Assembly (NCBI RefSeq): GCF_048403405.1
Contig: NZ_CP183129.1
From: Escherichia coli
GTDB lineage: Bacteria > Pseudomonadota > Gammaproteobacteria > Enterobacterales > Enterobacteriaceae
Length of the DNA: 64,000 nt
Reading direction: 5' to 3' (one strand)
The stretch's first letter is position 1, and the number at the start of each line of letters is the position of its first letter. Below, in pieces: positions 41,991 through 62,434 of the stretch. Below the pieces are notes generated by a model that worked only from the letters and a program-made list of their open reading frames with translations, made no database searches and was not told where the DNA came from. The position numbers and the translations under genes are program-made.

Positions 41991-42439
41991 AATTTTACGC
42001 CGTCGGCGGTACGCAGCCAGCGCGGGGATTTGAGTCCTTCCGTGAAATTCCAGACCAGCTCACACAGCAGCCCGGTCAGGGTTTGCTCCATTTTTGGTTC
42101 CGCCGGACGTTCCAGCAGAAGCTGGAGTAGTGCGAGGCAGTATTCGCACAAGGAATCAGGTTCGGAAATAAAGTGCTCTGGTGTGGCGGGAAGGGTATCC
42201 ACGGTCAGGCTTTCGGTAAGATGCGGTGGGATGGGGTCGTGTAGTGTGGGTTGCAGTAGCGCAAGAGCCGCGTGAAGCCGCCCGCAGAGCGCCAGTCGTA
42301 GCGCTGGATCGTCGGTTTCAATCAGGGTTTCGGCAAAGCGGGCGCAGTAGTCAGCAAGGACAGTGAAATCCGTGGTGGCATTGAAGGGGACGGTCAATAG
42401 ATCGAGTAAATCGCTGTCAGTGGTGAGGATTGTAGCCAT
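41972..42439 (-). CDS. hypothetical acidic protein; 3' end runs into IS26 (probably truncated)
   Basis: 155-aa ORF with a GGAGG Shine-Dalgarno upstream of the ATG at 42439; its last codons and stop lie inside the IS26 inverted repeat. No family recognised. Confidence 0.45.
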   Translation of the reverse strand: MATILTTDSDLLDLLTVPFNATTDFTVLADYCARFAETLIETDDPALRLALCGRLHAALALLQPTLHDPIPPHLTESLTVDTLPATPEHFISEPDSLCEYCLALLQLLLERPAEPKMEQTLTGLLCELVWNFTEGLKSPRWLRTADGVKLALLQS

Positions 42440-42785
42440 AGGGCAACCTCCGATAAGTGGGTGTTCAAGCCACCACCGGAGAGGCTAATCTCGCGGGTGG
42501 TGGAACCGGGCAGGGTTAGCCTTACCAGCCTTATCGGACACTGGCGCGTCTTGCGACGCCCCCGCCCGGCCCACCATTGAGATGTAACCGTGCGAACAAC
42601 ACAAAAAAAGACGCTGGCGCGTCATGTGTCGCCGATAAGATTTCTTCAGGAGGCTAATCCCGACGCCTGATTTTGCAGGCGCGGGAGAAAGATACTGCGA
42701 TTGGTCATGAGTGGCAAGGGCTACATCATGTTTACCGACATCTCACGCAAAAATACCCTGATTATTAATAGCGAAAATCAGTTTC

Positions 42786-45700
42786 TTATTTTGGCGGTAG
42801 CTTTTTGCGGTTCTTTGCCAACTGGAATCCTTCAGGTAACGGTTTGAATTTATCGCCGCCTTTAGGCCAGCGTTTTGCCCTGCTCTGAAATGCCCTTAAC
42901 GAGTCGATATCCAGCGTTGCAGCGACCACAAAGTCATTATCACCGCCCTTCACACGAGCAATATCACGCATAAAGGGTTCTTTTGCCGGGGAACGTACGC
43001 GACTATCGCCGTATTTTCGGTTATTCACTAAAATAGTATAGGCATGAATATCCAGCGCTGCTGATTCAATCAACGATGCAAACGTATCTAGATCTTTATT
43101 CCAGCTCAATACCATTAATGCATCGAGTGCGCCCTGAAAACGGATCCTCGCTTTACTATTCTGGAGTTCAGAGCAAATCATAACGCCAAAATTGACGCCG
43201 TGATGAATATATACCGGCTTACGTTGTTTAACATTAAGTGTCGAATCCCAAGACTTACCATAAGTTGAAAATAATGCCTCATCTTCACCTACGGCGGGTT
43301 CCAGCTTGGGTTGCCATATTTTGACACTCGCTGGATAGCCGAGTCTGTTATCTGAAAGGACAAGTACGGCCTCACTCTTCAGTTGATTATCGTCTAAGTG
43401 GCGGTATTCTGTTCCCGCAATTAGACTGATACCCGCCGAACTCAAACGATCAGCAATACTGTTAACCCAGCGTAACGGGATTGAAAGCTCAGGGAATAAA
43501 ACATAATCAGGTTTAGGAGATAGTTTCAATGTTGCATTAACCAGTTCAGAAATCCGCTGGTACCTTGAACGGGACAAGTTAGATTTATTGCAGGCCATTT
43601 TAGCCCAGTCGTCCTCCTCTGTTTTAATGCTGGTTAGCGCAACGACAACTTTATGTTTCCTGTCTGTGCCAATATGAATGAATTTCTTAGGCCGAGCTTT
43701 TTTTGTCGCTTCATCTGAGTCCTGCTCCGATGCTAGCAACGTCGGTTTGATCCATACTCCGCGTAATGCTTGAGTATATTTTGCCCAAATGGTGGACGGT
43801 CTCTCATCTGGTTTTTTGTCGGATGTGGAGGGTAATCCAACACATTCGGGGGCCAGTTCTGATATTTCAGCGGGTGTTAAAGGACGTGTAGGGAAAATGT
43901 AAGGTAGGTAACTTTCGTTTTTACGATTTCCTTTAGCCACTTTTTCCAGTCGGGTATTCTTGGTTGATTTCAAAAATAGCTTAATAACGTCAATATCAAT
44001 AAGCGATGAGTCGCTCATTAATTTCAGTATTTTAACTTCTTTTTTACTATCACGCTGATTAACAAGTTTTTCTGCCGACTGACTCTTTACGATCTGTTTA
44101 TAAGGTTCCTTTGCTAAATCAGCTCGAGCTACCAATGGCGCTTTTAAATAAAAATCTGCTGAATCAAAGCGAAGATCCAGTAAATCCTTTAGATTCGTCA
44201 GACTTTGTGAAATATGATTAAAAAATGTATCCGCAAGGCACTCTTCTTTCTTTGAACGTTTATCAAGAAATAATCTGTCAGGACTGTAATATCGTGTCGC
44301 TGCATCAACAAATAGCCAGCTTAATGTGCCTTTTATACAGCGCCAAAGATCATTTACTGCTCGAGTTTTGCAACCATTTATATTCACTTCCTTACCTGAA
44401 GTAATCACCGATGCCAACAGGTTGATGGATTCGTAAGCTTTAAGTACAATTTTTTCCGCGTGCTGCCATTCATTCATACTGATAGCAAAGCCAAGCAGCC
44501 TTGGCAGATAACTAAAATGTGCAAATAGATTATCAGCCCTAAGAATATGGTTGTAGGCAAACTGATAAAACTCTTCCCGCTGTTCTTTCCATTCACTTGG
44601 AGGCAGATCTCGTGCCAGTGTTTCAACGTAGCGTAATTGCAGTGACCAGCCCAAACGACGAATGGTTAATCCATCCGCACGGCGCAGAGTATCGGCATTT
44701 TCACCTACACTACCGGCAGCGGAAAGGACTTTAGCTGCGGTGGAGTGTTCCAGTTGATCCGGTGAAGGCATCAAGCGGTGTTCACTAGAAAGCTCGTAGA
44801 TCTCCTTTTCGATACTGTCGAGCAGGTCTATTCCAGCCCTCCCTTGAAGCACGAAAAGTTTTTGCTTATCGGATTGTAACTGGATGGTGGTCTTACCCTG
44901 GAAATGCTCGCCCTGCTGTATTTGCCATATTTGTTTTTGCTCGTTTTTCAAATAAACGCAATCATTGCCAAGCCTATCTTGCAGCAATAACATAAATTCG
45001 TGATTATTAGTAATTGTCCCTGTATCGCGTATTACAAGGAACATATCATCGACATAACGACCGTAGTGAATTGGTGATAGTTTTTCAATGACTAATTTAT
45101 CCCAATGGTGTAGCAATATATTTGAAATGATCCGACTGGCTGTTAATCCAATGACCAGACCACCATTAATAACAGGTGTTTTGTACGCTATTTTCTTTCC
45201 AAATGCCGCTGCGCCGTCAGACCAGTGCTTTAAGAATACTGCTAACTGTGCAGTAAACGCTTTTTCATCCTCAGTCAGTTTTATGTTTAGTGTGTTATAG
45301 AGATCATCAGAGGTTATAGCCAGTGGATCAATAAAATGATAGTAACTTTTTAAATCCAGTGAGGCGGCGATAATGTCACGATCTTTTTCCAACTCGTCAC
45401 GTATAGCTTTTAAGCCATCACCACGCCATTTTTGGTAGGGCTGGAAGTAGGGGCTAAAAGAACCCACGGCACTGATATGGAATGGATTATCCTGCTCATT
45501 GCTAAATAATTCATCATTACGAATACGCTTTAGCCGCGCGCCATAGCAACAGTTATCTAAGCTGGCATCAAATTTATGCCCGACCATGTTAATCCATAGT
45601 GCAGAGATAATGTGACTATCAACCGGGAAGTCACCAATAATACGAAACTCTGGTATCAGATCAAAATTATTAAATAAATGGTCGGCTGCTCGTTTAGGAT

Positions 45701-45995
45701 TAGAAAAGTGGACGTGTCCATTTTGGGATTCATGTTTTTTCTTTGTGGTTAATTTTTTCGGTAACAAACGAAATTTGCCAATCAACTTCTTATTGCTACT
45801 GAATCCATCTTCGCTCTGCAAAAGATCTAAGAGTTTTTGCAGGTTTTCAAGTAATTCCTGCTCATACTCGGCAAATTTGATAGCAACAGGAAATGTATTC
45901 TCAAAGAAGCTATCGGCTTTTGCTTTCCGGTAAGCGACCAGAAGGTCTTCAATCGTCAGATCATCCCAGCCAGTGAAAATTGCCTGATATGTCAT
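42786..45995 (-). CDS. reverse transcriptase-nitrilase fusion protein (DRT type 1 / UG1-like defence-associated RT)
   Basis: 1069-aa ORF with AAGGA Shine-Dalgarno. RT motif A ASLDLKSYYHFID, motif B GGLVIGLTASRIISNILL, motif C RYVDDMFLV (nt 45033-45059); C-terminal CN-hydrolase domain with FPELS (Glu836), VKIWQPK and GVMICSEL (Cys941, nt 43173-43175). Confidence 0.85.
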   Translation of the reverse strand: MTYQAIFTGWDDLTIEDLLVAYRKAKADSFFENTFPVAIKFAEYEQELLENLQKLLDLLQSEDGFSSNKKLIGKFRLLPKKLTTKKKHESQNGHVHFSNPKRAADHLFNNFDLIPEFRIIGDFPVDSHIISALWINMVGHKFDASLDNCCYGARLKRIRNDELFSNEQDNPFHISAVGSFSPYFQPYQKWRGDGLKAIRDELEKDRDIIAASLDLKSYYHFIDPLAITSDDLYNTLNIKLTEDEKAFTAQLAVFLKHWSDGAAAFGKKIAYKTPVINGGLVIGLTASRIISNILLHHWDKLVIEKLSPIHYGRYVDDMFLVIRDTGTITNNHEFMLLLQDRLGNDCVYLKNEQKQIWQIQQGEHFQGKTTIQLQSDKQKLFVLQGRAGIDLLDSIEKEIYELSSEHRLMPSPDQLEHSTAAKVLSAAGSVGENADTLRRADGLTIRRLGWSLQLRYVETLARDLPPSEWKEQREEFYQFAYNHILRADNLFAHFSYLPRLLGFAISMNEWQHAEKIVLKAYESINLLASVITSGKEVNINGCKTRAVNDLWRCIKGTLSWLFVDAATRYYSPDRLFLDKRSKKEECLADTFFNHISQSLTNLKDLLDLRFDSADFYLKAPLVARADLAKEPYKQIVKSQSAEKLVNQRDSKKEVKILKLMSDSSLIDIDVIKLFLKSTKNTRLEKVAKGNRKNESYLPYIFPTRPLTPAEISELAPECVGLPSTSDKKPDERPSTIWAKYTQALRGVWIKPTLLASEQDSDEATKKARPKKFIHIGTDRKHKVVVALTSIKTEEDDWAKMACNKSNLSRSRYQRISELVNATLKLSPKPDYVLFPELSIPLRWVNSIADRLSSAGISLIAGTEYRHLDDNQLKSEAVLVLSDNRLGYPASVKIWQPKLEPAVGEDEALFSTYGKSWDSTLNVKQRKPVYIHHGVNFGVMICSELQNSKARIRFQGALDALMVLSWNKDLDTFASLIESAALDIHAYTILVNNRKYGDSRVRSPAKEPFMRDIARVKGGDNDFVVAATLDIDSLRAFQSRAKRWPKGGDKFKPLPEGFQLAKNRKKLPPK

Positions 45996-46289
45996 GCGTT
46001 ATCGTCCTTAGATTACAGTCTGTACAGAATTAGCCAGCCGTTTCATGCCCGAAGGGGGGCTCTTGACACCAGTAATCCATCAGTGAGGCTGGCAATAATT
46101 TTGATTTGTATCCATGTTACACGCTCCCCGCAACCAGTCCGAGCATATATTTGTCACATTTTTCCCGAAAGTGATTAAGTTTGAATTTTTTGTTTAATGT
46201 CGATTTTTAGTCGACAAAATGAGGAATAAGTAAACTATTTCTTGCTGTGGCGTATCCCTGAATCTACACTGGTTTAAATATTTGTACTA

Positions 46290-47093
46290 ATGTCTATTCA
46301 GAGGCGACAGTTGCCAAACTATCTAAACTGGCTGATGCAGCACACGCTACCCGGCCAGGTGCTGCTCCAGTCATGGCTTACCCGCAACGGCATAGATCGT
46401 AAGCTCTCTTATCTCTATGTGAAGAATGGCTGGCTCAGGCGGATCGCTCACGGCGTATACTGCCGGACGGGCCGTGAGCCGGATTGGGTAGACGCGGTTT
46501 ACTGCCTTCAAACACAGTGGGAAAAGCCTGTTCGGGTGGCGGGGCTAACCAGCCTTGCGCTTCAGGGCCATGCGCACTATACCGAACCGGGTAAGCCGCA
46601 GGTCTGGCTCGCGCTTCCGGCTTACGTTAAGCTGCCGGGATGGTTTGCTGCCTTCGAACAATCTGCAACATTTATCACGCTGTATACATCGGGGCTTACC
46701 GTAGATGTAACGTCATTGACTACGGAACTGAAAATTGGCGACCGCCAGTTAGCAGGCAGTGCCCCGGAACTGGCCGCGTATGAGATCGCCTGCGGCGTTC
46801 CTTCGTTGATATCGTTCGAACATGCCGATGCTCTGTTTCAGGGGATGAATCTTCTCAGCCCACGCAAATTGCAGGCACTGCTTCGCGCCAGCCATTCGGT
46901 TAAAACCAACCGGGTGATGCTTTACCTTGCCCGGCGTAATGGACACCCTTATTTTCAGTATATTGATCAAAGCGGTATAGAAACAGGTACGGGAAAGCGG
47001 CAAATCATACCCGGCGGCTGGCTGGAGCCGGATTATCAAATTACTGTTCCACGCGCATTTAAACCGGAAGGAGTCGAAGATGGATCTGCGTGA
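46290..47093 (+). CDS. AbiEi-like antitoxin / transcriptional regulator (type IV TA)
   Basis: 267-aa ORF immediately upstream of, and overlapping by 14 bp, an AbiEii-like nucleotidyltransferase gene; N-terminal wHTH-like region with an R-x-x-x-G-V-Y motif. No clear Shine-Dalgarno, so the start is uncertain. Confidence 0.65.
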   Translation: MSIQRRQLPNYLNWLMQHTLPGQVLLQSWLTRNGIDRKLSYLYVKNGWLRRIAHGVYCRTGREPDWVDAVYCLQTQWEKPVRVAGLTSLALQGHAHYTEPGKPQVWLALPAYVKLPGWFAAFEQSATFITLYTSGLTVDVTSLTTELKIGDRQLAGSAPELAAYEIACGVPSLISFEHADALFQGMNLLSPRKLQALLRASHSVKTNRVMLYLARRNGHPYFQYIDQSGIETGTGKRQIIPGGWLEPDYQITVPRAFKPEGVEDGSA

Positions 47094-48000
47094 TAGCTAT
47101 GCCCGGCAGGTCAAACTGTTGATGGCCGCTCTGCCGTATGTGGCGAAGGAGTCCTGTTTCGCGTTGAAAGGCGGCACCGCAATCAATTTGTTTGTGCAGG
47201 ATTTTCCCCGTCTGTCGGTGGATATTGATCTGGCGTACAAGAGCTTTGCGGATCGCGATACTGATTTGGCGGCTATCAACGACGCTTTGAAGAGGATTAC
47301 TGCATCGCTGAACGGCAGACCGGGGATCACCGCGATTCGGCAGGAAAATAAAGCGGATGAAAAGCGCATCATTGTGAATACCGCTGATGCAAAGATTAAG
47401 ATCGAGGTTAGCCCGGTCTGGCGCGGGCTGTTGTTGCCTCCGGCAGAAATGCCTGTGTGCGAACGTGTGGAAATGGAGTATGGCTTCACCACCATGAGTG
47501 TCGTCTCGCTGGCGGATCTTTATGGCGGTAAAATCTGCGCTGCGCTTGATCGTCAGCACCCGCGCGATCTGTTTGATGTGCTGAATATGCTGGAGAAACC
47601 GGGACTGATGCGGGAGATCTTTGACGGTTTTCTTTGTTATCTGGCAGGCCATCCCCGCCCCATCGCCGAGTTGCTGGCTCCAAACTGGGATACAGAGCGG
47701 ATCGCCACGTTGTACGCGCAGGAATTTTCGGGGATGACTCAGCAGGAAACGTCGCTGGAATCGCTGCTGTCAGTAACGACTTTGCTGCCGCAGGCGTTGA
47801 AGTCACATCTTACGGATCTGGATCGCGAGTTCTTGCTCAGTTTTAAGCAAAACAGCCCTGACTGGTCGCGGTATCGCTATCCTGAAATTCAGCATCTTCC
47901 GGCTATTCGCTGGAAGCAACGTAATCTGGCGGTGCTGAAAGATAAAAATCCGGCGAAGTATGTGGCGGCGGTGAATAAGCTAGAGAGGGTGCTGGCGTAA
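47080..48000 (+). CDS. AbiEii-like nucleotidyltransferase toxin (DUF1814 family)
   Basis: 306-aa ORF with GGAG Shine-Dalgarno; N-terminal nucleotidyltransferase motif LKGGTAINLF...LSVDIDLAY typical of AbiEii/AbiGii toxins. Confidence 0.8.
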   Translation: MDLRDSYARQVKLLMAALPYVAKESCFALKGGTAINLFVQDFPRLSVDIDLAYKSFADRDTDLAAINDALKRITASLNGRPGITAIRQENKADEKRIIVNTADAKIKIEVSPVWRGLLLPPAEMPVCERVEMEYGFTTMSVVSLADLYGGKICAALDRQHPRDLFDVLNMLEKPGLMREIFDGFLCYLAGHPRPIAELLAPNWDTERIATLYAQEFSGMTQQETSLESLLSVTTLLPQALKSHLTDLDREFLLSFKQNSPDWSRYRYPEIQHLPAIRWKQRNLAVLKDKNPAKYVAAVNKLERVLA

Positions 48001-48364
48001 TCAATAGACCAGCATTAATCACGGATGATTACCAATCAGACAGATATGGTTAAATCATCGAATTCATAATTAATACTTTTTCTTACGCCGCTGAACAGCT
48101 TGAAAAGGATACATATTTTAAATATCAGTGAAGTGGACAGTTTATTGCCGTTATTAATAGAGATGGAGGAATAAATACGCGTATTCTACTATTGCAACAA
48201 AAACAACGATGATGATCAGTTTTCATAATGAAGTAACCTGACAGATATAAAAATGTTGATTGAGGCTCAATGCCCGGATGAAGGTTGTCGAGGGAGCCAG
48301 GTGGTTTTTTCTTTTGGGTGATCTCCATTGCTGGATAGTCCCCTCTTTCTCGCTCAAAGCAGAC

Positions 48365-48689
48365 TGTACTGCACCCATTTTGTTGGACGATGAAATGGAA
48401 TAGCCCCTAATATGTCAAAGCCAAAATACCCTTTTGAAAAGCGCCTTGAAGTCGTGAATCACTACTTCACAACTGATGATGGTTACAGGATCATCTCGGC
48501 ACGTTTTGGTGTCCCCCGAACCCAGGTCAGGACATGGGTTGCCCTCTATGAAAAACATGGAGAAAAAGGTTTAATTCCCAAACCTAAAGGCGTTAGTGCT
48601 GATCCAGAGTTGCGTATTAAGGTCGTGAAAGCTGTGATCGAGCAGCACATGTCCCTTAATCAGGCTGCTGCTCACTTTATGCTTGCTGG
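48365..48689 (+). mobile_element. IS150 5' fragment (325 bp), truncated by IS26
   Basis: Begins with the IS150 terminal repeat TGTACTGCACCCATTTTG and is identical in protein sequence to the start of insJ in the full copy at 27720-29162; ends abruptly at the IS26 terminus. Confidence 0.9.
48412..48689 (+). pseudogene. insJ: insJ fragment (first ~92 codons of IS150 OrfA)
   Basis: MSKPKYPFEKR...AAAHFMLAG, then the frame reads into IS26. Confidence 0.85.
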
Positions 48690-49509
48690 GGCACTGTTGC
48701 AAATAGTCGGTGGTGATAAACTTATCATCCCCTTTTGCTGATGGAGCTGCACATGAACCCATTCAAAGGCCGGCATTTTCAGCGTGACATCATTCTGTGG
48801 GCCGTACGCTGGTACTGCAAATACGGCATCAGTTACCGTGAGCTGCAGGAGATGCTGGCTGAACGCGGAGTGAATGTCGATCACTCCACGATTTACCGCT
48901 GGGTTCAGCGTTATGCGCCTGAAATGGAAAAACGGCTGCGCTGGTACTGGCGTAACCCTTCCGATCTTTGCCCGTGGCACATGGATGAAACCTACGTGAA
49001 GGTCAATGGCCGCTGGGCGTATCTGTACCGGGCCGTCGACAGCCGGGGCCGCACTGTCGATTTTTATCTCTCCTCCCGTCGTAACAGCAAAGCTGCATAC
49101 CGGTTTCTGGGTAAAATCCTCAACAACGTGAAGAAGTGGCAGATCCCACGATTCATCAACACGGATAAAGCGCCCGCCTATGGTCGCGCGCTTGCTCTGC
49201 TCAAACGCGAAGGCCGGTGCCCGTCTGACGTTGAACACCGACAGATTAAGTACCGGAACAACGTGATTGAATGCGATCATGGCAAACTGAAACGGATAAT
49301 CAACGCCACGCTGGGATTTAAATCCATGAAGACGGCTTACGCCACCATCAAAGGTATTGAGGTGATGCGTGCACTACGCAAAGGCCAGGCCTCAGCATTT
49401 TATTATGGTGATCCCCTGGGCGAAATGCGCCTGGTAAGCAGAGTTTTTGAAATGTAAGGCCTTTGAATAAGACAAAAGGCTGCCTCATCGCTAACTTTGC
49501 AACAGTGCC
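48690..49509 (+). mobile_element. IS26 (IS6 family), 820-bp copy 2
   Basis: Same termini as copy 1, same orientation; one nucleotide differs from copy 1 (G at 48838 versus A at 41319). Confidence 0.95.
48753..49457 (+). CDS. tnpA: IS26 transposase Tnp26
   Basis: 234-aa ORF with ...GISYRELQEM..., the form recalled as canonical for Tnp26. Confidence 0.95.
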   Translation: MNPFKGRHFQRDIILWAVRWYCKYGISYRELQEMLAERGVNVDHSTIYRWVQRYAPEMEKRLRWYWRNPSDLCPWHMDETYVKVNGRWAYLYRAVDSRGRTVDFYLSSRRNSKAAYRFLGKILNNVKKWQIPRFINTDKAPAYGRALALLKREGRCPSDVEHRQIKYRNNVIECDHGKLKRIINATLGFKSMKTAYATIKGIEVMRALRKGQASAFYYGDPLGEMRLVSRVFEM

Positions 49510-51543
49510 AAACCGTTAGCGATTATGGTTCCGGCGTGGAATGAAACGGGCGTCATCGGCAATATGGCCGAGCTGGCGGCGACCACGCTCGACTATGAAA
49601 ACTATCATATCTTTGTTGGCACCTACCCCAACGACCCCGATACACAGCGTGATGTTGACGAAGTGTGCGCTCGCTTCCCGAACGTGCATAAGGTAGTCTG
49701 CGCGCGTCCTGGCCCCACCAGCAAAGCCGACTGCCTGAACAACGTGCTGGACGCCATCACCCAGTTTGAGCGTAGCGCCAATTTCGCTTTTGCTGGTTTT
49801 ATTCTGCATGACGCCGAAGACGTAATTTCACCGATGGAATTGCGTCTGTTCAACTATCTGGTCGAGCGTAAAGATCTGATTCAGATCCCGGTGTATCCGT
49901 TCGAACGCGAATGGACGCACTTCACCAGCATGACTTACATTGATGAGTTTTCAGAACTGCATGGCAAAGATGTTCCGGTGCGTGAAGCCCTCGCCGGACA
50001 AGTGCCCAGCGCAGGCGTCGGTACCTGTTTCAGCCGCCGCGCCGTGACCGCACTGTTAGCTGACGGTGACGGTATTGCTTTCGACGTGCAGAGTCTTACT
50101 GAAGATTACGACATTGGTTTCCGCCTGAAAGAAAAAGGTATGACGGAAATTTTTGTCCGTTTTCCGGTGGTGGACGAAGCCAAAGAACGCGAGCAGCGTA
50201 AATTTTTACAGCACGCGCGGACGTCAAACATGATCTGCATGCGCGAATATTTCCCTGATACCTTTTCGACTGCGGTTCGACAAAAATCTCGCTGGATCAT
50301 CGGCATTGTTTTCCAGGGCTTTAAAACCCACAAATGGACCTCCAGCCTGACGCTGAACTACTTTCTCTGGCGCGACCGCAAAGGGGCAATCAGTAACTTT
50401 GTCAGCTTTCTCGCGATGCTGGTGATGATCCAGCTTCTGCTGTTACTGGCGTATGAAAGTTTGTGGCCCGATGCCTGGCATTTCCTTTCTATTTTCAGCG
50501 GCAGCGCATGGTTAATGACCCTGCTGTGGCTAAACTTTGGTTTGATGGTTAACCGCATCGTGCAGCGGGTGATTTTTGTCACTGGCTACTACGGTCTGAC
50601 GCAGGGGCTGCTATCTGTCCTGCGTCTTTTCTGGGGCAACCTGATTAACTTCATGGCCAACTGGCGCGCGTTAAAACAGGTACTTCAACACGGCGATCCA
50701 CGTCGTGTCGCGTGGGATAAAACAACGCATGACTTCCCCAGCGTGACTGGCGATACCCGCTCGTTGCGCCCGTTAGGCCAAATTCTGCTGGAAAATCAGG
50801 TCATCACTGAAGAACAACTCGATACAGCACTGCGTAATCGCGTCGAAGGTCTACGCCTGGGCGGTTCAATGCTGATGCAGGGGCTGATTAGCGCCGAACA
50901 GCTGGCACAGGCGCTGGCAGAGCAAAACGGCGTGGCGTGGGAATCCATCGACGCCTGGCAGATCCCGTCCTCGCTGATTGCCGAAATGCCGGCCTCCGTG
51001 GCGCTGCATTATGCAGTGCTGCCGCTGCGTCTGGAAAATGATGAGTTAATTGTCGGCAGTGAAGATGGTATTGACCCGGTTTCGCTGGCGGCCCTGACGC
51101 GTAAAGTCGGACGCAAAGTGCGTTACGTCATTGTTCTGCGGGGACAAATTGTCACGGGGTTACGTCACTGGTATGCACGCCGACGCGGTCACGATCCGCG
51201 GGCAATGTTGTACAATGCGATTCAGCATCAGTGGCTCACGGAACAGCAGGCCGGTGAAATCTGGCGGCAATATGTGCCGCATCAGTTCCTGTTCGCCGAA
51301 ATACTGACCACGCTCGGTCATATTAATCGTTCAGCAATTAACGTGTTGTTATTGCGCCATGAACGCAGTTCTCTGCCGCTCGGCAAGTTTTTGGTCACCG
51401 AAGGCGTTATCAGCCAGGAAACGTTGGATCGCGTCCTGACAATTCAACGCGAATTACAAGTTTCGATGCAATCACTATTACTCAAAGCAGGTTTAAACAC
51501 AGAACAGGTTGCGCAACTGGAGTCCGAAAATGAAGGAGAATAA
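49510..51543 (+). pseudogene. nfrB: phage N4 adsorption protein B (glycosyltransferase family 2), 5'-truncated by IS26
   Basis: The frame is open from the IS26 junction; the first Met gives 672 aa against a recalled native length of about 745 aa, so N-terminal membrane segments and the promoter are missing. Confidence 0.85.
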
Positions 51544-54502
51544 CCTTAATCGCGTCATCGGATGGTCTGGTTTACTGCTGACGTCTTTATTGAGTACCAG
51601 CGCACTCGCAGACAATATCGGCACCAGCGCAGAAGAGCTGGGGCTGAGCGATTATCGCCATTTTGTTATTTATCCCCGTCTCGATAAGGCGCTGAAGGCA
51701 CAGAAAAATAACGACGAAGCAACCGCCATCCGCGAATTTGAATATATACACCAACAGGTGCCGGATAATATTCCGCTAACTTTATACCTTGCGGAAGCCT
51801 ATCGCCATTTTGGTCATGATGACCGGGCGCGGCTGTTGCTTGAGGATCAACTGAAACGTCACCCAGGAGATGCCCGACTTGAGCGCAGTCTGGCGGCTAT
51901 TCCAGTTGAAGTGAAAAGCGTTACGACTGTTGAAGAACTGCTTGCCCAGCAAAAAGCGTGCGACGCTGCGCCGACCCTGCGTTGTCGCAGTGAAGTCGGG
52001 CAGAATGCCCTGCGGCTGGCACAATTACCTGTCGCCAGAGCGCAACTGAACGATGCGACGTTTACTGCATCGCCGGAAGGAAAAACGCTGCGAACCGATC
52101 TGCTGCAACGCGCAATCTACCTGAAACAATGGTCCCAGGCAGATACGCTATACAATGAAACACGCCAGCAGAACACATTAAGCGCGGCAGAACGCCGCCA
52201 GTGGTTTGATGTGCTTCTTGCCGGGCATCTGGACGATCGGATCCTGGCGCTGCAATCACAGGGGATCTTCACCGATCCTCAGTCATATATTACTTACGCG
52301 ACCGCGCTGGCTTATCGTGGCGAAAAAGCACGCCTCCAGCATTATCTCATTGAAAATACGCCGCTATTTACCACGGACGCACAAGAGAAAAGTTGGCTCT
52401 ATCTGTTATCTAAATACAGCGCCAACCCCGTTCAGGCGTTGGCGAATTATACGGTACAGTTTGCCGACAACCACCAGTATGTTGTTGGCGCGACGCTACC
52501 GGTGCTGTTAAAAGAAGGTCAGTACGACGCAGCGCAAAAACTGCTCGCCACCCTCCCCGCCAATGAAATGCTTGAGGAGCGTTATACCGTTAGCGTGGCG
52601 ACCCATAACAAGGCTGAAGCTCTGCGTCTGGCACGATTGCTGTATCAGCAAGAACCGGCAAATCTTACCCGCCTGGATCAACTGACCTGGCAACTGATGC
52701 AGAACGAGCAGTCACGCGAAGCTGCCGATTTATTGCTGCAACGCTATCCTTTCCAGGGCGATGCGCGTGTCAGCCAGACTTTAATGGCGCGACTGGCGTC
52801 TCTGCTGGAAAGTCATCCTTACCTGGCAACTCCGGCGAAGGTGGCGATTTTATCGAAACCCTTACCGCTGGCGGAGCAACGTCAGTGGCAAAGTCAGTTG
52901 CCGGGTATTGCAGATAATTGCCCGGCAATAGTTCGCTTGCTGGGCGATATGTCGCCTTCCTACGATGCCGCCGCCTGGAACCGTCTGGCAAAGTGTTATC
53001 GGGACACGCTACCCGGTGTGGCGTTGTATGCATGGCTTCAGGCCGAACAACGACAACCGAACGCCTGGCAACATCGTGCGGTAGCCTATCAGGCGTATCA
53101 GGTTGAGGACTACGCCACCGCACTGGCGGCCTGGCAGAAAATCAGTCTTCACGACATGAGCAATGAGGATCTGCTTGCTGCTGCCAATACCGCCCAGGCG
53201 GCAGGAAATGGTGCGGCTCGCGATCGCTGGCTTCAGCAGGCAGAACAACGTGGGCTGGGAAACAATGCCCTCTACTGGTGGCTACATGCGCAACGTTACA
53301 TTCCTGGTCAGCCGGAACTCGCACTGAACGATCTCACGCGCTCAATCAATATTGCGCCTTCTGCCAACGCTTACGTTGCGCGGGCGACAATTTATCGCCA
53401 ACGTCATAATGTCCCGGCGGCGGTGAGTGATTTGCGCGCCGCACTGGAACTGGAACCGAATAATAGCAACACCCAAGCAGCGCTCGGTTACGCCTTGTGG
53501 GATAGCGGTGATATCGCACAGTCGCGGGAAATGCTCGAACAGGCGCATAAAGGGCTACCGGACGATCCGGCACTTATCCGACAACTGGCCTACGTGAACC
53601 AGCGTCTGGATGACATGCCTGCGACGCAGCACTACGCCCGGCTGGTGATTGATGACATTGATAATCAGGCGCTGATAACCCCACTGACCCCAGAGCAAAA
53701 TCAGCAACGCTTCAATTTCCGCCGTCTGCATGAGGAGGTCGGTCGCCGCTGGACGTTCAGTTTCGATTCTTCCATCGGCTTGCGTTCCGGCGCGATGAGT
53801 ACCGCTAACAATAATGTCGGCGGCGCAGCGCCAGGGAAAAGCTATCGTAGCTACGGGCAACTGGAAGCCGAGTACCGCATCGGACGCAATATGCTGCTGG
53901 AAGGCGACCTGCTCTCAGTTTATAGCCGCGTCTTTGCCGATACCGGAGAAAACGGGGTGATGATGCCGGTGAAAAATCCGATGTCCGGCACCGGTCTGCG
54001 CTGGAAGCCGCTGCGCGATCAGATCGTTTTCCTCGCCGTCGAACAGCAGTTGCCGCTGAACGGGCAAAATGGCGCATCCGATACCATGCTGCGCGCCAGC
54101 GCCTCATTCTTTAATGGCGGCAAATACAGCGACGAATGGCACCCGAACGGTTCAGGCTGGTTTGCCCAAAACCTGTACCTCGATGCGGCGCAATATGTCC
54201 GCCAGGATATTCAGGCGTGGACGGCAGATTATCGCGTAAGCTGGCATCAGAAGGTGGCGAACGGACAGACTATTGAGCCTTACGCTCACGTTCAGGACAA
54301 CGGTTATCGTGATAAAGGCACTCAGGGCGCGCAGCTTGGCGGTGTCGGGGTCCGCTGGAATATCTGGACCGGCGAGACGCACTACGACGCCTGGCCGCAC
54401 AAAGTCAGTCTCGGCGTCGAATATCAACATACCTTTAAGGCGATTAATCAACGTAACGGAGAGCGCAACAACGCGTTTCTCACCATTGGAGTGCACTGGT
54501 AA
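51530..54502 (+). CDS. nfrA: phage N4 adsorption protein A (outer membrane)
   Basis: Start at MKENNLNRVIGWSG; about 990 aa; overlaps the nfrB 3' end. Confidence 0.9.
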   Translation: MKENNLNRVIGWSGLLLTSLLSTSALADNIGTSAEELGLSDYRHFVIYPRLDKALKAQKNNDEATAIREFEYIHQQVPDNIPLTLYLAEAYRHFGHDDRARLLLEDQLKRHPGDARLERSLAAIPVEVKSVTTVEELLAQQKACDAAPTLRCRSEVGQNALRLAQLPVARAQLNDATFTASPEGKTLRTDLLQRAIYLKQWSQADTLYNETRQQNTLSAAERRQWFDVLLAGHLDDRILALQSQGIFTDPQSYITYATALAYRGEKARLQHYLIENTPLFTTDAQEKSWLYLLSKYSANPVQALANYTVQFADNHQYVVGATLPVLLKEGQYDAAQKLLATLPANEMLEERYTVSVATHNKAEALRLARLLYQQEPANLTRLDQLTWQLMQNEQSREAADLLLQRYPFQGDARVSQTLMARLASLLESHPYLATPAKVAILSKPLPLAEQRQWQSQLPGIADNCPAIVRLLGDMSPSYDAAAWNRLAKCYRDTLPGVALYAWLQAEQRQPNAWQHRAVAYQAYQVEDYATALAAWQKISLHDMSNEDLLAAANTAQAAGNGAARDRWLQQAEQRGLGNNALYWWLHAQRYIPGQPELALNDLTRSINIAPSANAYVARATIYRQRHNVPAAVSDLRAALELEPNNSNTQAALGYALWDSGDIAQSREMLEQAHKGLPDDPALIRQLAYVNQRLDDMPATQHYARLVIDDIDNQALITPLTPEQNQQRFNFRRLHEEVGRRWTFSFDSSIGLRSGAMSTANNNVGGAAPGKSYRSYGQLEAEYRIGRNMLLEGDLLSVYSRVFADTGENGVMMPVKNPMSGTGLRWKPLRDQIVFLAVEQQLPLNGQNGASDTMLRASASFFNGGKYSDEWHPNGSGWFAQNLYLDAAQYVRQDIQAWTADYRVSWHQKVANGQTIEPYAHVQDNGYRDKGTQGAQLGGVGVRWNIWTGETHYDAWPHKVSLGVEYQHTFKAINQRNGERNNAFLTIGVHW

Positions 54503-55393
54503 ATGCGTAAGTTCATTTTCGTATTGCTGACACTGCTTTTGGTCAGCCCTTTTTCCTTTGCGATGAAAGGTATTATCTGGCAACCACAAAACCGTGATAG
54601 TCAGGTTACCGATACCCAGTGGCAGGGGCTGATGAGTCAGTTACGTTTGCAAGGCTTCGATACCCTGGTTTTGCAATGGACCCGTTACGGCGATGCATTC
54701 ACCCAGCCAGAACAGCGCGCGTTATTGTTTAAGCGTGCAGCAGCTGCGCAACAGGCTGGCCTGAAGCTGATTGTCGGGCTGAATGCCGATCCGGAATTTT
54801 TTATGCACCAGAAACAGTCATCCGCGGCGCTGGAAAGCTATCTTAACCGCCTACTGGCTGCCGATCTCCAGCAAGCCAGATTATGGAGCGCCGTACCTGG
54901 CGTAACGCCGGATGGCTGGTACATCAGCGCGGAAATTGACGACCTGAACTGGCGCAGCGAAGCCGCCCGTCAGCCTTTGCTGACATGGTTAAACAACGCG
55001 CAGCGGTTGATTAGCGATGTTTCAGCAAAACCGGTTTATATCAGTAGTTTTTTCGCCGGAAACATGTCGCCCGATGGCTATCGCCAACTGCTGGAACAAG
55101 TTAAAACAACCGGCGTTAATGTCTGGGTACAGGATGGCAGCGGCGTGAATAAACTTACCGCTGAACAGCGTGAACGTTATCTACAGGCCAGCGCCGATTG
55201 CCAAAGCTCCGCCCCAGCAAGCGGCATTGTTTATGAACTGTTTGTCGCCGGCAAAGGCAAAACCTTTACAGCGAAACCGAAACCGGATGCAGAGATCGCC
55301 TCGCTGTTAGCGAAACGTTCCTCTTGCGGTAAAGACACGCTCTATTTCTCTCTGCGCTATTTGCCCGTTGCGCACGGCATTCTCGAGTATTAA
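54503..55393 (+). CDS. ybcH: conserved protein YbcH
   Basis: 296-aa ORF with signal peptide; synteny. Confidence 0.85.
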   Translation: MRKFIFVLLTLLLVSPFSFAMKGIIWQPQNRDSQVTDTQWQGLMSQLRLQGFDTLVLQWTRYGDAFTQPEQRALLFKRAAAAQQAGLKLIVGLNADPEFFMHQKQSSAALESYLNRLLAADLQQARLWSAVPGVTPDGWYISAEIDDLNWRSEAARQPLLTWLNNAQRLISDVSAKPVYISSFFAGNMSPDGYRQLLEQVKTTGVNVWVQDGSGVNKLTAEQRERYLQASADCQSSAPASGIVYELFVAGKGKTFTAKPKPDAEIASLLAKRSSCGKDTLYFSLRYLPVAHGILEY

Positions 55394-55575
55394 ATCTCCT
55401 CCAGGTAAGTCGGGTACGACCTGGCTTACCTCTTTCGCTCTCGTCAGAATTCCATCAAGATTAATTGCTAAAAAGCGTGCTAAAGAAAGAAGATCGTTAT
55501 CGGCGAACGGGCCGATCACTCATGCAGGAAGCATAGATCCTTTGAGCGGAGTTTCTGATATCTGAGGAGTGCGAA

Positions 55576-56337
55576 ATGCAATTGAGCAGCAGTGAACCTT
55601 GCGTGGTGATCCTGACCGAAAAAGAGGTAGAGGTAAGCGTCAATAACCATGCTACGTTTACCCTTCCGAAAAACTACCTGGCCGCCTTCGCGTGCAACAA
55701 TAACGTCATTGAACTCTCAACGTTAAATCACGTATTAATCACCCACATCAACCGTAACATCATCAACGATTATCTGTTGTTTTTAAATAAGAACTTAACC
55801 TGTGTAAAGCCCTGGTCGCGGCTGGCTACCCCGGTTATCGCTTGTCATAGCCGTACACCGGAAGTGTTCCGGCTAGCCGCCAACCACAGCAAGCAGCAAC
55901 CCAGCAAACCCTGCGAAGCGGAGTTGACGCGCGCATTGCTTTTTACCGTATTGTCTAACTTTCTTGAGCAATCGCGGTTTATTGCCCTACTGATGTATAT
56001 CTTACGCAGCAGCGTCCGCGACAGCGTCTGCCGCATTATTCAAAGCGATATTCAGCATTACTGGAATCTGCGAATTGTCGCCAGTTCGCTATGTTTAAGC
56101 CCCAGCCTGCTCAAAAAGAAATTAAAAAACGAAAATACCAGCTATAGCCAGATTGTCACAGAGTGTCGTATGCGTTACGCCGTACAGATGTTATTGATGG
56201 ATAACAAAAATATCACTCAGGTAGCGCAATTATGTGGCTATAGCAGCACGTCGTACTTTATCTCTGTTTTTAAGGCGTTTTACGGCCTGACACCGTTGAA
56301 TTATCTCGCCAAACAGCGACAAAAAGTGATGTGGTGA
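55576..56337 (+). CDS. envY: AraC-family porin thermoregulator
   Basis: 253-aa ORF with C-terminal AraC HTH; matches EnvY. Confidence 0.85.
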   Translation: MQLSSSEPCVVILTEKEVEVSVNNHATFTLPKNYLAAFACNNNVIELSTLNHVLITHINRNIINDYLLFLNKNLTCVKPWSRLATPVIACHSRTPEVFRLAANHSKQQPSKPCEAELTRALLFTVLSNFLEQSRFIALLMYILRSSVRDSVCRIIQSDIQHYWNLRIVASSLCLSPSLLKKKLKNENTSYSQIVTECRMRYAVQMLLMDNKNITQVAQLCGYSSTSYFISVFKAFYGLTPLNYLAKQRQKVMW

Positions 56338-56382
56338 AGGGCAAAGCGGAAACGGATAGGACGGGGATAAATGAAGAAGAAA

Positions 56383-56459
56383 TGGCGCGCCCTGCAGGAT
56401 TCGAACCTGCGGCCCACGACTTAGAAGGTCGTTGCTCTATCCAACTGAGCTAAGGGCGC
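56383..56459 (-). tRNA. argU: tRNA-Arg (anticodon UCU)
   Basis: The reverse complement reads GCGCCCTTAGCTCAGTTGGATAGAGCAACGACCTTCTAAGTCGTGGGCCGCAGGTTCGAATCCTGCAGGGCGCGCCA: cloverleaf, UCU anticodon, 3' CCA. Confidence 0.9.
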
Positions 56460-56701
56460 GTTGATACCGCAATGCGGTGTAATCGCGTGAATTATACGGT
56501 CAACCCTTGCTGAGTCAATGGCTTTTGATCTGGTTGCTGAACAAGTGAACGACCGCGTCTGATTTTCTGATTTATTTCGCTATAGCGGCAAACAAACGTA
56601 CACCGCTGCGCGTCTGAATCAAGAAAACCCGTATTTTCATGTATCAAAGTACAATTTCCCGCCCTAACGGAAAATTGTCCGATCCTATGAGACTGGTAAC
56701 T

Positions 56702-57334
56702 ATGAAACCAACGTCGGTGATCATTATGGATACTCATCCTATCATCAGAATGTCTATTGAAGTTCTGTTGCAAAAAAACAGTGAATTGCAAATTGTCCTG
56801 AAAACGGATGATTATCGCATAACCATCGATTATCTCCGAACCCGTCCTGTTGATTTAATCATTATGGATATAGACTTGCCCGGTACAGACGGTTTTACCT
56901 TCCTGAAAAGGATCAAACAAATCCAGAGTACAGTGAAAGTATTATTTTTATCATCGAAATCAGAATGCTTTTATGCTGGCAGAGCGATACAAGCTGGTGC
57001 TAACGGCTTTGTCAGTAAATGCAATGATCAGAATGATATTTTTCATGCCGTTCAGATGATCCTCTCCGGATACACTTTTTTTCCCAGCGAAACGCTCAAC
57101 TATATAAAAAGCAATAAATGTAGCACGAATAGTTCAACGATCACTGTGCTATCTAATCGTGAAGTGACCATATTACGTTATCTGGTTAGCGGATTATCCA
57201 ATAAAGAAATTGCCGATAAGTTATTACTTAGCAATAAAACAGTTAGTGCGCATAAATCTAATATTTATGGCAAGCTAGGTTTGCATTCAATTGTAGAGCT
57301 TATCGACTATGCCAAATTATATGAATTAATATAA
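56702..57334 (+). CDS. fimZ: LuxR/NarL-family response regulator of fimbrial expression
   Basis: Start at MKPTSVIIMDTHP; receiver plus HTH domains; 210 aa. Confidence 0.9.
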   Translation: MKPTSVIIMDTHPIIRMSIEVLLQKNSELQIVLKTDDYRITIDYLRTRPVDLIIMDIDLPGTDGFTFLKRIKQIQSTVKVLFLSSKSECFYAGRAIQAGANGFVSKCNDQNDIFHAVQMILSGYTFFPSETLNYIKSNKCSTNSSTITVLSNREVTILRYLVSGLSNKEIADKLLLSNKTVSAHKSNIYGKLGLHSIVELIDYAKLYELI

Positions 57335-57336
57335 TA

Positions 57337-57852
57337 TTAATTATAATTGATCATAAATATCGCATCCGCTTTCGCCACACCTGGCTGAACACCACTGGCT
57401 AACGCTCGATAATTGGCAAAAAAGTTTAGTGTGACATTGCCATTTGCATCTACTTCCTCAGTCGGGCTCGCCTCCCCCAGTGCGAGCCGGGAGCGATCGC
57501 TATTACGTAATTCGATGGCGACGGTTTGTGCCATTGCGGGATCATCCAGAGCCAGCAGGTTGGCATCAGATGCCGGCGTTCCCGTAAATAAAATTGCAAC
57601 TGAACCCGGAGGACATCCCTCCAGCCGCAGGCTAAAAGGGACGAGTGCCGTGGTATCGCCAGCGCTCAGTAATTGTGTCGTAGGCCATCTGCCTAAATCT
57701 ACTGTCTTATCCTTATCCGCTGTGTTTACGGTACAGGAGAAATCAACAACGTTACCGTGCAAATTGATATTAATCGTTCCTAAAGGGTCAACTGCCCATC
57801 CACTGGAACTCCACAGTAGCCCGCAGAAACAGCTAAAGAGTACTCTTCTCAT
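57337..57852 (-). CDS. sfmF: fimbrial minor subunit
   Basis: Start at MRRVLFSCF; about 171 aa. Confidence 0.85.
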   Translation of the reverse strand: MRRVLFSCFCGLLWSSSGWAVDPLGTININLHGNVVDFSCTVNTADKDKTVDLGRWPTTQLLSAGDTTALVPFSLRLEGCPPGSVAILFTGTPASDANLLALDDPAMAQTVAIELRNSDRSRLALGEASPTEEVDANGNVTLNFFANYRALASGVQPGVAKADAIFMINYN

Positions 57853-57862
57853 TCTCCGTACC

Positions 57863-58870
57863 TCATTGATAATCGACGCGTAAATACCCCAGCGCGCTAA
57901 ACGGCCCTTCGGTCGGTTTTTGACCGGTAATACTGATAGGCCAGGCGCGAAGTGTGACATTGGCTGCCGCAGCTGCATCCAGACGGAAAGGAATAACGCT
58001 ATTGAGATCGTTAGGCGTGATCGGCGTATCGTTCTGATCGGCGACAATAAAACCTAAATCCTGATTGTCCGACACCATCGCCTGACCAGAAACGGCACTG
58101 GCTTCCAGACGCATTGTTAAATAAGCCTGCGCAGCAACATTCGTACATTTGATCGCAATATTCCTGGTTTGCGGCATGACACCATTAGGTCGATTCCCCG
58201 GCCCTGCCGCACTAAATAACGATGCACCGATATCACCAAAATCAAATTCAACAATTTGCCCGGCATTTAATTCGCAGTTTTGCGGTACTTCAACCCGGCC
58301 ACCAAAACTAATGGTATAAACAGGTGTAACCAACGGATCGTAAGGCGTTGATGTCACATACACGGTAAACATCACCTGTCTGGGGATCTCCACCATGTTA
58401 ATAAAGGGACGAATAACCTTTAAACGAAATATTAAACGAGAATCCATCACCCCGAATGGAAGGTTTTGCGAAACGTTAGGATCTGTTCCCATCCGAATAT
58501 AATTTTGCGGGGGGAACTGAATATCCATCACACTATCAACCAGACTCATCGCACCTAATAGATAATCATTTAATTGCATATATTTATAATTATCGATAGT
58601 TTCCTGAACAATAAAGTTAGTGACATAACTACGGTATGTATAATTCACCAGCGTGCCGGGTGGACAAATTGCTGATACACCTACCCAGCCGGATTTTTCC
58701 GGTAAAACAACAATCTGCCCTGGCTGGTTATTGGTGCTATTAAAGACATTTGAGAGATCATAGTGTTCATCTTCTGCTACGCCAGTACTATTTGCACAAA
58801 CAGTAGCCCAGGATATGTTTGCCAGACACAAACATGCCATCGCCAATAATAATCTGCAGATTATCTTCAT
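57863..58870 (-). CDS. sfmH: fimbrial adhesin-like subunit
   Basis: 335-aa ORF with signal peptide; synteny. Confidence 0.85.
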   Translation of the reverse strand: MKIICRLLLAMACLCLANISWATVCANSTGVAEDEHYDLSNVFNSTNNQPGQIVVLPEKSGWVGVSAICPPGTLVNYTYRSYVTNFIVQETIDNYKYMQLNDYLLGAMSLVDSVMDIQFPPQNYIRMGTDPNVSQNLPFGVMDSRLIFRLKVIRPFINMVEIPRQVMFTVYVTSTPYDPLVTPVYTISFGGRVEVPQNCELNAGQIVEFDFGDIGASLFSAAGPGNRPNGVMPQTRNIAIKCTNVAAQAYLTMRLEASAVSGQAMVSDNQDLGFIVADQNDTPITPNDLNSVIPFRLDAAAAANVTLRAWPISITGQKPTEGPFSALGYLRVDYQ

Positions 58871-58882
58871 TGATAATTTCCT

Positions 58883-61492
58883 TTATGAGCCAGAATGTGT
58901 GCAAACTGCCGAAATAACAGTGACGGCTTGCTGTAAGCTTTGCTTCGGCAATACATAGTGCGCAATGCAGCGTGAGTTCGCGCCGTCTCCCCACTGAACC
59001 AGTAATTCACCAGACAATGGCGCACCACTTAAATAAACTTGCCCGTCATCACCCACCATACTGGTTATTCCGGTACTGTTTTCCCGTACCAGTGATCCAA
59101 ACGGCACCGGTTTTCCGCCCTGGGTAACGGTAATGAGCGCCCGCACGCCTATGCGGGTGTCAAAATTGGCACGAACCAACGCGCCTTGCGTCGGCACAAC
59201 GCTGCTAATATTTTTTTCAACATCGATGGAATTCCCCATCGTATTGGTATCAAGCGCGATACGGTTATACCGATAAACCGTGGCATACGGCATCACCGCA
59301 TAGCCGCGCCAGTCGGTTAAAATTCCAGTTTGATTTTCAATGCGTACACCGCCTGCGCCTGGCGCTTTAATCAAAACATTGGTATCCCCTAAAGGCTGGC
59401 TCAGCGTTATGCCATTTTCATGTCCGACCACACCGCCAGACAGCTGCCAGTTAACGTCATGTTGATCGCGGTCGTAGTTATACCCGACCCCCAGCGTACC
59501 GTAAGCGGCCTGCCAGTTTGCCGTGGCGCTGCCCGTATACCCATTATTCGAGGTATCGCCCTGGCTTACGTGATAACTCAGGTTGTGGCCTTCCAGTAAG
59601 GTCCCACCAACGCCTGCCAGCCAGCTATTTTGCCCGTTGCTGTTACGGTTGGCGTTAAAGGAGGCATAAGCGCGGTCGAGCGCATTTTCCCGGGTGTAGC
59701 GACGTTTGGTCAAAACATTGAAAGGCACTGAAACATTAAGTCCGACAATACGTTCGTTATCGGGGATCCCTACAGATTCATTCCACGAAAATGAGAGTGA
59801 ATAACTGATGCCAACCCAGCTGCTGGTATACCCCACCTGATACCAGGTATCTGAATCCGAAGTATTCCAGTATTTTTGATGGGTACCAGAAATATAAAGC
59901 GAGCCAAAGTCATTAAGTGATTGTGAAATATTTAACTGTAAACGGTCTTTACGACTAAAGCGTAAATTGTGGTAATTCACGATTATCGGTTCATCGCGAT
60001 GCTCACCGTCATAATCGTAATCATATTCGTACCCCTCCATTCGACGATACGCAACATCATCAAGGGTATAAAAACCTTGTGTCGAATAGCGGTAACCCAT
60101 TAACTGAAAATTGGTGCCGAAAGTGTTCATTGATTTCGCATAGAGGAAGCGAATGGAATCCCCCTCATGACGACTGTCGTCGGCTAACTGACTGCGCGCA
60201 TGCGTTACATCCAGCGACACTGCGCCCCAGTTCCCGAGGTTGCGCCCCAACCCTAACAAAAAGGCGGTGTAATTTGCAGATAATTGCGTCCCGCCGTAGG
60301 CAGTAAATTCCTGTGGTAAACCGCCGAGTGCCGTGCCCTGAAAAAAGAAAGGCGACGATTGCTGACTATTACCGCTACGAAAATCACCCGCCGTCAGGTC
60401 AAATTTGAAACGCCCTTCGCGTTGTAAAATTGGCACTGTCGAATACGGAATAGTGTAATTCTGCTGATTACCATCGCGCTCGTCGATGGTGACGTCCAGA
60501 TCGCCATTTGAAGATGTCGGGTGTAAATCTGTAATTTCAAAAGCGCCGGGGGAAACATAGCTTTGATAGATAATAAAACCATTTTGCCGAATCGTTAGCT
60601 GGGCCGCCGTACGGGCAATCCCACGTACCGTTGGGGCAAACCCTTGCTGGCTATCAGGATACATATTATCGGAAGAATAAAGCCGTACACCTCGAAATCC
60701 GACGCCATCGAAAATATCACTCCCTGTATTACCGTCTCCCATTACCAGTTCACTTTTCAGCGGAATAATGGCGCGCTGTACCCAGGTGCCAATATTATTC
60801 CACTGTTCTGAATGATATCCATTTCCGCGAAAATAGTTCCAGGAACCATTGTTGCGTAAACGCCACGGGCCAATATTAATCCCGCTGAGTTCACTAAAAA
60901 AATAGCTATCGTTACCATTACCTCTGTTACCGGTGAAATTATAATTCAGGAGTAAAGCAGGAATACCTTCATCCCACTCTTCAGGCGGAATGTAACCGTG
61001 AGCGCTACTCAACAACGCTATCTGAGGAATAGTGATGTTCAGGCGCATCGCTGCAAAATCAAAGTTAATTGTGGCATCAGGTACAGCTTTCAGTAAATTA
61101 ATGCATTTATTATTTTGCTGCTGGGCTAACTCGGGGAATGCACTGCTATTAAGGCCAATTCGTTCAAGGAGTGCCTGATTAAAACAAGGCATTAACCCAC
61201 CTGATTTATCACCTGTATTTACTGTCGTCGATTCAAATACGATATCCTGTGAACCAATGAACTCATCATTACGCCAGAGATCCACCCGATACACACCCGC
61301 AGGTTGATGATTACCTCTCTCAAAGCGCGATAAATCAGCAACGGATGTGCCATTCTCTAATAAAAATGCCGGGTTGAAATAACTTTCCGCATAGCTTAAA
61401 AAGGAGGGTAAAATGGCAAGAGATGAATAACAAATTCCGGCCAGACACCAGCTATACCTCTGCGGAATATCCGTAGTAGTGGGTATTTTCAT
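58883..61492 (-). CDS. sfmD: fimbrial outer-membrane usher
   Basis: 869-aa usher-like ORF. Confidence 0.9.
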
Positions 61493-61522
61493 AATTAGCT
61501 CTGATATTGTCAGATGATTCGG

Positions 61523-62215: not shown

Positions 62216-62434
62216 AGTTAATACGCCTTGTGTATTCCTGACGGCAAAAATAAGGAGTATAAAGAAATGATTGCTTTGGTTTCTTACAACACATCATTCC
62301 CTTTTCATTTAATAAAGCGGCATGATACAAAGTGAACATGATTTCGATTTACATTGCCACCATACCGCTTCAGACAACCGGTACATTACTTTGTTATAAG
62401 ACGTGATATATAATTCAAAACAACGTGGTTTTGA

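Follow-up and report, generated by a model that had tools for sequence, protein, structure and literature searches.

An nfrB gene truncated by IS26 beside an IS26-bounded segment of defence genes in Escherichia coli

The window, a 64-kb stretch of an Escherichia coli genome, contains the nfrBA-ybcH operon, part of the cus copper/silver region and, between these, two copies of IS26 that enclose a segment with candidate anti-phage genes. From left to right, we found the following features:

39799 to 41170, minus strand: cusC', the other edge of a deletion, which has lost codons 1-4 and the cusC/cusR divergent promoter region
41171 to 41990, plus strand: IS26 copy A, 820 bp, in the same orientation as copy B, with the substitution R29H in Tnp26
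41991 to 48364, no strand assigned: thrW-island segment, 6,374 bp, matching the thrW-adjacent island of strain 4621 (L002 18001-24374) at 100% identity
42786 to 45995, minus strand: RT_UG5-nitrilase gene, 1,069 aa (PADLOC PDLC03780, 1034 bits)
46290 to 47093, plus strand: AbiEi gene, in the thrW-island segment
47080 to 48000, plus strand: AbiEii gene, in the thrW-island segment
Within 41991 to 48364, strand not given: a 3'-truncated hypothetical gene, an ash-like gene and a ykgR remnant
48365 to 48689, plus strand: the left 325 bp of an IS150, cut by IS26 copy B and 100% identical to the window's complete IS150
48690 to 49509, plus strand: IS26 copy B, 820 bp, with tnp26 at 48753-49457 (234 aa), joined to nfrB' at its right end
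49510 to 51543, plus strand: nfrB', codons 69-745 and the stop codon, without the promoter, the Shine-Dalgarno (SD) sequence, the GTG start and residues 1-68
51530 to 54502, plus strand: nfrA, intact, 990 aa, the same as nfrA of strain 4621 (NCBIfam NF007302, positions 1-990 of 990)
54503 to 55393, plus strand: ybcH, intact, third gene of the nfrBA-ybcH operon, named after the annotation in strain 4621 (NCBIfam NF007404, positions 1-296 of 296)

The right end of IS26 copy B (48690-49509) directly abuts codon 69 (of 745) of nfrB. Immediately after the last base of the element, the sequence from 49510 onward reads AAA CCG TTA GCG ATT ATG GTT CCG GCG TGG, encoding KPLAIMVPAW. Positions 49510-63543 match the E. 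coli strain 4621 chromosome (NZ_CP103479.1; locus L001, 12001-26034) at 100% identity, so that every base of the nfrB remainder, nfrA and ybcH is the same in both genomes. Strain 4621 has an intact nfrB (annotated at L001 11797-14034, 745 aa, GTG start), and the 677 codons retained in nfrB' exactly match residues 69-745 of its product. A sequence-only reading of this DNA had described nfrB as open from the IS26 junction and lacking its 5' end, its promoter and about 70 N-terminal codons. The comparison with strain 4621 supports this description and sharpens it: the gene has lost 204 nt (68 codons), and IS26 has also taken the place of all DNA upstream. The reading frame is open from 49495, where it is closed off by an in-frame TAA inside IS26 (49492-49494). 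Within it, no start codon precedes the ATG at 49525, which corresponds to Met74 and from which a 672-aa product would be read.

We also considered whether NfrB in this lineage natively starts at the methionine at 49525, but this can be ruled out. We represented the nfrB 5' region by a 601-bp probe that takes in upstream DNA and the gene's first 500 nt. This probe matches 4,978 of 5,426 complete E. coli genomes at a minimum of 95% identity and 80% coverage, K-12 MG1655 among them, and the NCBIfam equivalog profile for NfrB (NF008411) covers the 5' part. The 677-aa remnant scores 1221.2 bits against this profile, above the cut-off of 1170, but aligns only to positions 63-722, whereas intact NfrB aligns to positions 1-722; the remnant thus does not cover the full length of the profile. 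The shorter form is not the native one. An exact-match query of public assemblies with the 672-aa Met74 product returned no record. A few complete genomes have two places matching nfrB, and the source genome may carry a second nfrB copy elsewhere.

The truncation of nfrB is one edge of a larger deletion. In all, 19,579 bp of strain 4621, from cusC codon 4 to nfrB codon 69, are absent from the window. The deleted interval comprises cusC codons 1-4, the cusC/cusR promoter region, cusR, cusS, vgrG, a DcrB-related gene, an Rhs cluster, ISAs1 and the 5' end of nfrB; in its place lie IS26 copy A, the 6,374-bp segment, the 325 bp of IS150 and IS26 copy B. To the left of the deletion, positions 279-41170 (ybdN to cusC) differ from strain 4621 by 2 mismatches in 40,892 bp. 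This near-identity over 40.9 kb indicates that the source genome is essentially the same clone as strain 4621, a Houston bloodstream isolate. One of the only two single-base differences lies at position 15791 (G versus A), in the fepD/fepG region. In the strain 4621 record, positions 3707917-3724069 (L003 43918 to L001 11599) contain vgrG, a DcrB-like gene, a multi-Rhs cluster and ISAs1 between cusS and nfrB.

At the cus edge, the cusCFBA genes are probably silent, because CusRS and the promoter are gone, and this silencing predicts a lower tolerance of copper and silver. An in-frame GTG inside the left end of IS26 (41175-41173) could replace the cusC start. Read from that GTG, cusC' would begin (M)PKLLPFCVALALTGCS..., with the lipoprotein signal and lipobox preserved.

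Both insertion sequences can be assigned to IS26 by their length of 820 bp, perfect 14-bp terminal inverted repeats and a single 234-aa Tnp26. The terminal repeat GGCACTGTTGCAAA occurs at 48690 (plus strand), 49496-49509 (minus strand), 41171 and 41977-41990, giving four perfect matches where 0.07 would be expected by chance. Over the 820-bp alignment, copies A and B differ at one base (IS position 149), resulting in R29H in the Tnp26 of copy A. This may reflect separate origins of the two copies, or a later mutation. The copies are directly oriented (both on the plus strand), lie 6,699 bp apart and flank a unique segment, the layout expected of a pseudo-compound transposon.

Simple or replicative insertion of IS26 produces 8-bp target-site duplications, and conservative joining of a translocatable unit (TU) to an existing IS26 produces directly oriented copies with no new duplication (PMC4196232, PMC4676283). 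The flanks here are GAAGTTTA and AATTTTAC to the left and right of copy A, and CTTGCTGG and AAACCGTT to the left and right of copy B. We found no 8-bp duplication in any pairing of these four flanks, nor around the whole unit. This fits a deletion or a conservative or recombinational origin rather than simple insertion. The locus resembles the adjacent deletions, TUs and pseudo-compound structures previously described for IS26 (Harmer, Moran & Hall 2014, PMC4196232; Harmer & Hall 2015, PMC4676283) in its direct IS26 pair, its lack of target-site duplications and the loss of chromosomal DNA beside the IS. It differs in its cargo: those structures carry antibiotic-resistance genes, whereas here the cargo consists of chromosomal anti-phage candidates from the genome's own thrW island.

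In strain 4621, this island lies beside the tRNA-Thr gene thrW, at a distance of 319 kb from nfrB and oppositely oriented. A degraded integrase adjoins the tRNA-Thr in this island remnant. The 6,374-bp segment occurs in 258 of the 5,426 complete E. coli genomes. The IS150 piece that follows it matches positions 28838-29162 (opposite strand) of the complete IS150 at 27746-29162, beside hokE. Both carry the same base at 29118, where the strain 4621 copy differs, and this points to transposition of IS150 within the source genome before IS26 cut it. Among complete genomes and plasmids, none was found to join the thrW-island cargo to IS150. One apparent plasmid match to the cargo (CP088862.1) is a prophage or chromosomal fragment with an intact hypothetical gene, and is uninformative.

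The earlier reading had proposed that the truncated receptor-pathway gene was coupled in a single rearrangement to newly acquired defence genes. The physical coupling is real: nfrB' adjoins an IS26-flanked module with a UG5-nitrilase RT and AbiE. Acquisition is a different matter, since the 6,374 bp are 100% identical to the lineage's own thrW island, as seen in strain 4621. Horizontal acquisition of the cargo is thereby ruled out, and the segment represents an intragenomic copy or move from the thrW island. Nor can a single rearrangement account for the structure, and the four IS26 flanks contain no matching duplications. The history must have been a multi-step one, because an IS150 insertion, at least two IS26 insertions, the 19.6-kb deletion and either a translocation or a pair of inversions are all required.

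A plausible history would begin with the insertion of IS150 beside the thrW island. IS26 copies would then have inserted both at the island and between cus and nfr; their plausible source is the IS26-rich plasmid of the lineage (the plasmid of strain 4621 has seven IS26 places). Next, an IS26-mediated adjacent deletion would have removed the 19.6 kb. Finally, the 6.7-kb segment would have arrived either as a TU, through conservative joining to or homologous recombination with an IS26 already in place, or by two successive replicative inversions. Two routes can be envisaged in full. In the first, IS150 and two IS26 copies would insert around the thrW segment, and the released TU would join a cus-nfr IS26 that had already made the 19.6-kb deletion. 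In the second, two intramolecular replicative inversions (one from nfrB to the island, the other back from IS150) would be followed by a deletion towards cusC. Judged on the local structure, either route would give what is observed; the thrW locus, dgcJ and wecB all lie outside the 64-kb window. The routes differ in what they predict at thrW: under the first, the thrW copy may persist, while under the second it would have moved, leaving a third IS26 behind.

To see how unusual this arrangement is, we looked for it in other genomes and in the literature. The three junctions searched for, out of four (IS26-nfrB', cusC'-IS26 and IS26-island), are absent from the 5,426 complete E. coli genomes, from which no intermediates or clone-mates were recovered, and by this comparison the nfrB' allele appears private to the source genome. 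The literature search found no papers that treat nfrB and IS26 together. Loss of the gene as such is common: 448 of the 5,426 genomes (~8%) do not contain at least 80% of the nfrB 5' probe, and nfrB or dgcJ is naturally inactivated in some E. coli by IS elements, deletions or stops, including in all B strains, which has been attributed to a fitness cost of the pathway (PMC8669472). Strain MB20 (NZ_CP073976.1) carries an independent, N-terminally truncated nfrB bounded by IS1A. As in our window, an IS abuts the 5'-truncated gene and nfrA is kept downstream, and in MB20 as in the known natural inactivations of nfrB and dgcJ (PMC8669472), loss of the N4 glycan receptor pathway is expected. Unlike in those cases, the element here is IS26, the gene is broken at codon 69, immediately ahead of the GT2 domain, 19.6 kb (cusRS, vgrG/Rhs and ISAs1) are deleted, and a 6.7-kb IS26-bounded segment has been brought in. 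In MB20, only an IS1A separates cusS from nfrB. What we describe is a new allele of an ordinary, already described kind of E. coli gene loss.

We consider it highly probable that nfrB' is a pseudogene, in all likelihood null, which arose as a by-product of IS26 activity in a clone near-identical to strain 4621. The gene is called inactivated because its promoter, SD and start codon have all been lost. Intact NfrB of K-12 and strain 4621 is a c-di-GMP-activated GT2 exopolysaccharide synthase (NF008411). With the FliA-dependent promoter, the SD and GTG start and the N-terminal membrane segment missing, no functional NfrB glycosyltransferase would be made, and the cell should not display the N4 glycan receptor. 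In K-12, deletion of nfrB or nfrA abolishes N4 plating, and the glycosyltransferase and c-di-GMP-binding residues of NfrB are required (PMC8669469). The surface glycan used by N4 is Nfr-dependent, and the phage can infect the encapsulated UPEC strain UTI89 (PMC8669472). On this basis, the source isolate should be refractory to N4-type adsorption, and the prediction is one of resistance at this step.

It might be proposed that phages drove the rearrangement, selecting both for loss of an N4-type receptor pathway and for a duplicated or mobilised UG5-nitrilase RT and AbiE. A truncated receptor-pathway gene does adjoin an IS26-flanked defence module, and a direct IS26 pair has the pseudo-compound architecture that is able to release a TU (PMC4196232, PMC4676283). 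N4 also infects encapsulated, O-antigen-bearing UPEC, and its receptor therefore matters in wild strains (PMC8669472). However, the cargo was already in the lineage and adds nothing new to its defence repertoire, and several steps would be needed. The rearrangement also removed cusRS, the cusC start, vgrG/Rhs and ISAs1, a pattern typical of unselected IS26 adjacent deletion. The absence of the allele from the complete genomes gives no sign of clonal success, and the attribution of common nfrB loss to its fitness cost (PMC8669472) also speaks against phage-driven selection. We regard this explanation as improbable. Its fullest version, in which nfrB is truncated at the edge of a functional pseudo-compound transposon with the UG5-nitrilase RT and AbiE that could be mobilised to IS26-bearing plasmids, and in which N4-like or other phages selected for receptor-pathway loss together with defence duplication, seems equally improbable. 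There is no sign of phage selection: unrelated genes (cusRS, vgrG/Rhs) were also deleted, the cargo is not new, and nfrB loss has been linked to pathway cost. The loss of nfrB would most simply be incidental, neutral or due to that cost.

It could also be argued that the truncated gene is still expressed and functional, with read-through from tnp26 or a weak hybrid promoter supplying a Met74 product that makes the N4 glycan. Much of the protein is indeed retained. The Pfam GT2 domain begins at residue 70, and hence the break falls just ahead of the catalytic domain. The remnant keeps the whole GT2 and MshEN domains and the post-GT hydrophobic helices. The processive GT2 signatures are present (DxD at D169, TED at D267 and QxxRW at W330), as are the c-di-GMP residues of MshEN (L490/G491 and G519), so that all tested residues remain, and the importance of each has been shown experimentally (PMC8669469, PMC8669472). 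Pfam PF13641, PF13632 and PF05157 match intact NfrB, and NF053729 scores 70.6 bits on the remnant. A PDB search returned only relatives of the MshEN domain, and no NfrB-like synthase structure. Compared with strain 4621 NfrB, the remnant has identical residues 69-745, and it keeps the GT2 motifs, the c-di-GMP domain MshEN and its place ahead of nfrA and ybcH; what sets it apart from the intact K-12 and strain 4621 versions is the loss of residues 1-68, of the native start and of the FliA-dependent promoter.

The missing N-terminus weighs against such a product. Within the lost residues 1-68, a hydrophobic segment spans approximately aa 7-40, and 10 of the 29 residues behind it are K/R, so that the region resembles a membrane helix flanked by a positive-inside stretch. 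When intact NfrB is aligned to four more distantly related NCBIfam glycosyltransferase families, the match likewise starts near its N-terminus (residues 3-17), indicating that this segment is a conserved part of the synthase family fold. The missing stretch is thus included in the profile of NfrB and in those of four related families, which argues against a functional Met74 product.

Expression raises further objections. The nfrBA-ybcH genes form a single operon, whose only characterised promoter, FliA-dependent and low-level, lies upstream of nfrB (PMC8669469), and this promoter region has been replaced by IS26. FliA-dependent regulation is lost with it (PMC8669469). The native nfrB start has an AAGG SD 8 nt upstream; both AAGG and GTG are deleted in the source genome, and we found no SD-like motif in the 25 nt preceding the ATG at 49525. 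A consensus scan of 48600-49900 detected no sigma-70-like promoter and no terminator-like hairpin. A hybrid promoter read by eye (TTGCAA-N18-GATTAT, with TTGCAA in the IS26 end) was the only candidate, but matches the consensus at 8 of 12 positions and falls below the scan threshold. Its -10 element overlaps the ATG at 49525, so that its transcript would begin downstream of Met74 and could not express the Met74 product. On the other side, tnp26 of copy B is co-oriented with nfrB' and no terminator-like site lies between them, which leaves read-through from tnp26 as the sole plausible source of nfrB' transcription. The intact nfrA and ybcH would also be consistent with a working pathway. Taken together, we consider a functional truncated NfrB very unlikely.

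Under the preferred reading, in which nfrB' is a pseudogene, its downstream neighbours are expected to be affected as well. Gene order is kept, and nfrA overlaps the stop of nfrB' by 14 nt, as in the described operon (PMC8669469). From this layout, expression of nfrA and ybcH would be reduced and deregulated, their transcription relying at most on tnp26 read-through. It had been suggested that nfrA might suffer from polarity. An effect on nfrA is plausible, given the lost promoter upstream of nfrB and the 14-nt overlap, but classical polarity is not the fitting explanation: the predicted effect follows from the loss of the promoter and of translational coupling, while tnp26 runs in the same direction with no terminator-like site in between, making read-through possible.

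An assembly artefact, in which a wrong path was taken through the IS26 repeats and nfrB is really intact, is extremely unlikely: the window does hold two equal-length IS26 repeats within 8 kb, in a lineage with an IS26-rich plasmid, but the nfrB break coincides to the base with an IS26 terminal repeat, as expected of a genuine transposition or deletion end, the break in cusC is just as precise, and a mis-join via the 820-bp repeat could swap the far-side segment but not restore the nfrB 5' end.

The finding leaves the current understanding of NfrB, N4 and IS26 unchanged. It adds one more case showing that IS26 remodels chromosomes and plasmids alike, here by deleting 19.6 kb. Within the window, IS26 activity is predicted to have silenced both the cus copper/silver system and the Nfr exopolysaccharide pathway, and has enclosed defence genes between two IS26 copies. 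If the phenotype is confirmed, the source isolate would be a natural N4-type-resistant variant, of relevance only to phage host-range prediction or therapy in this clone.
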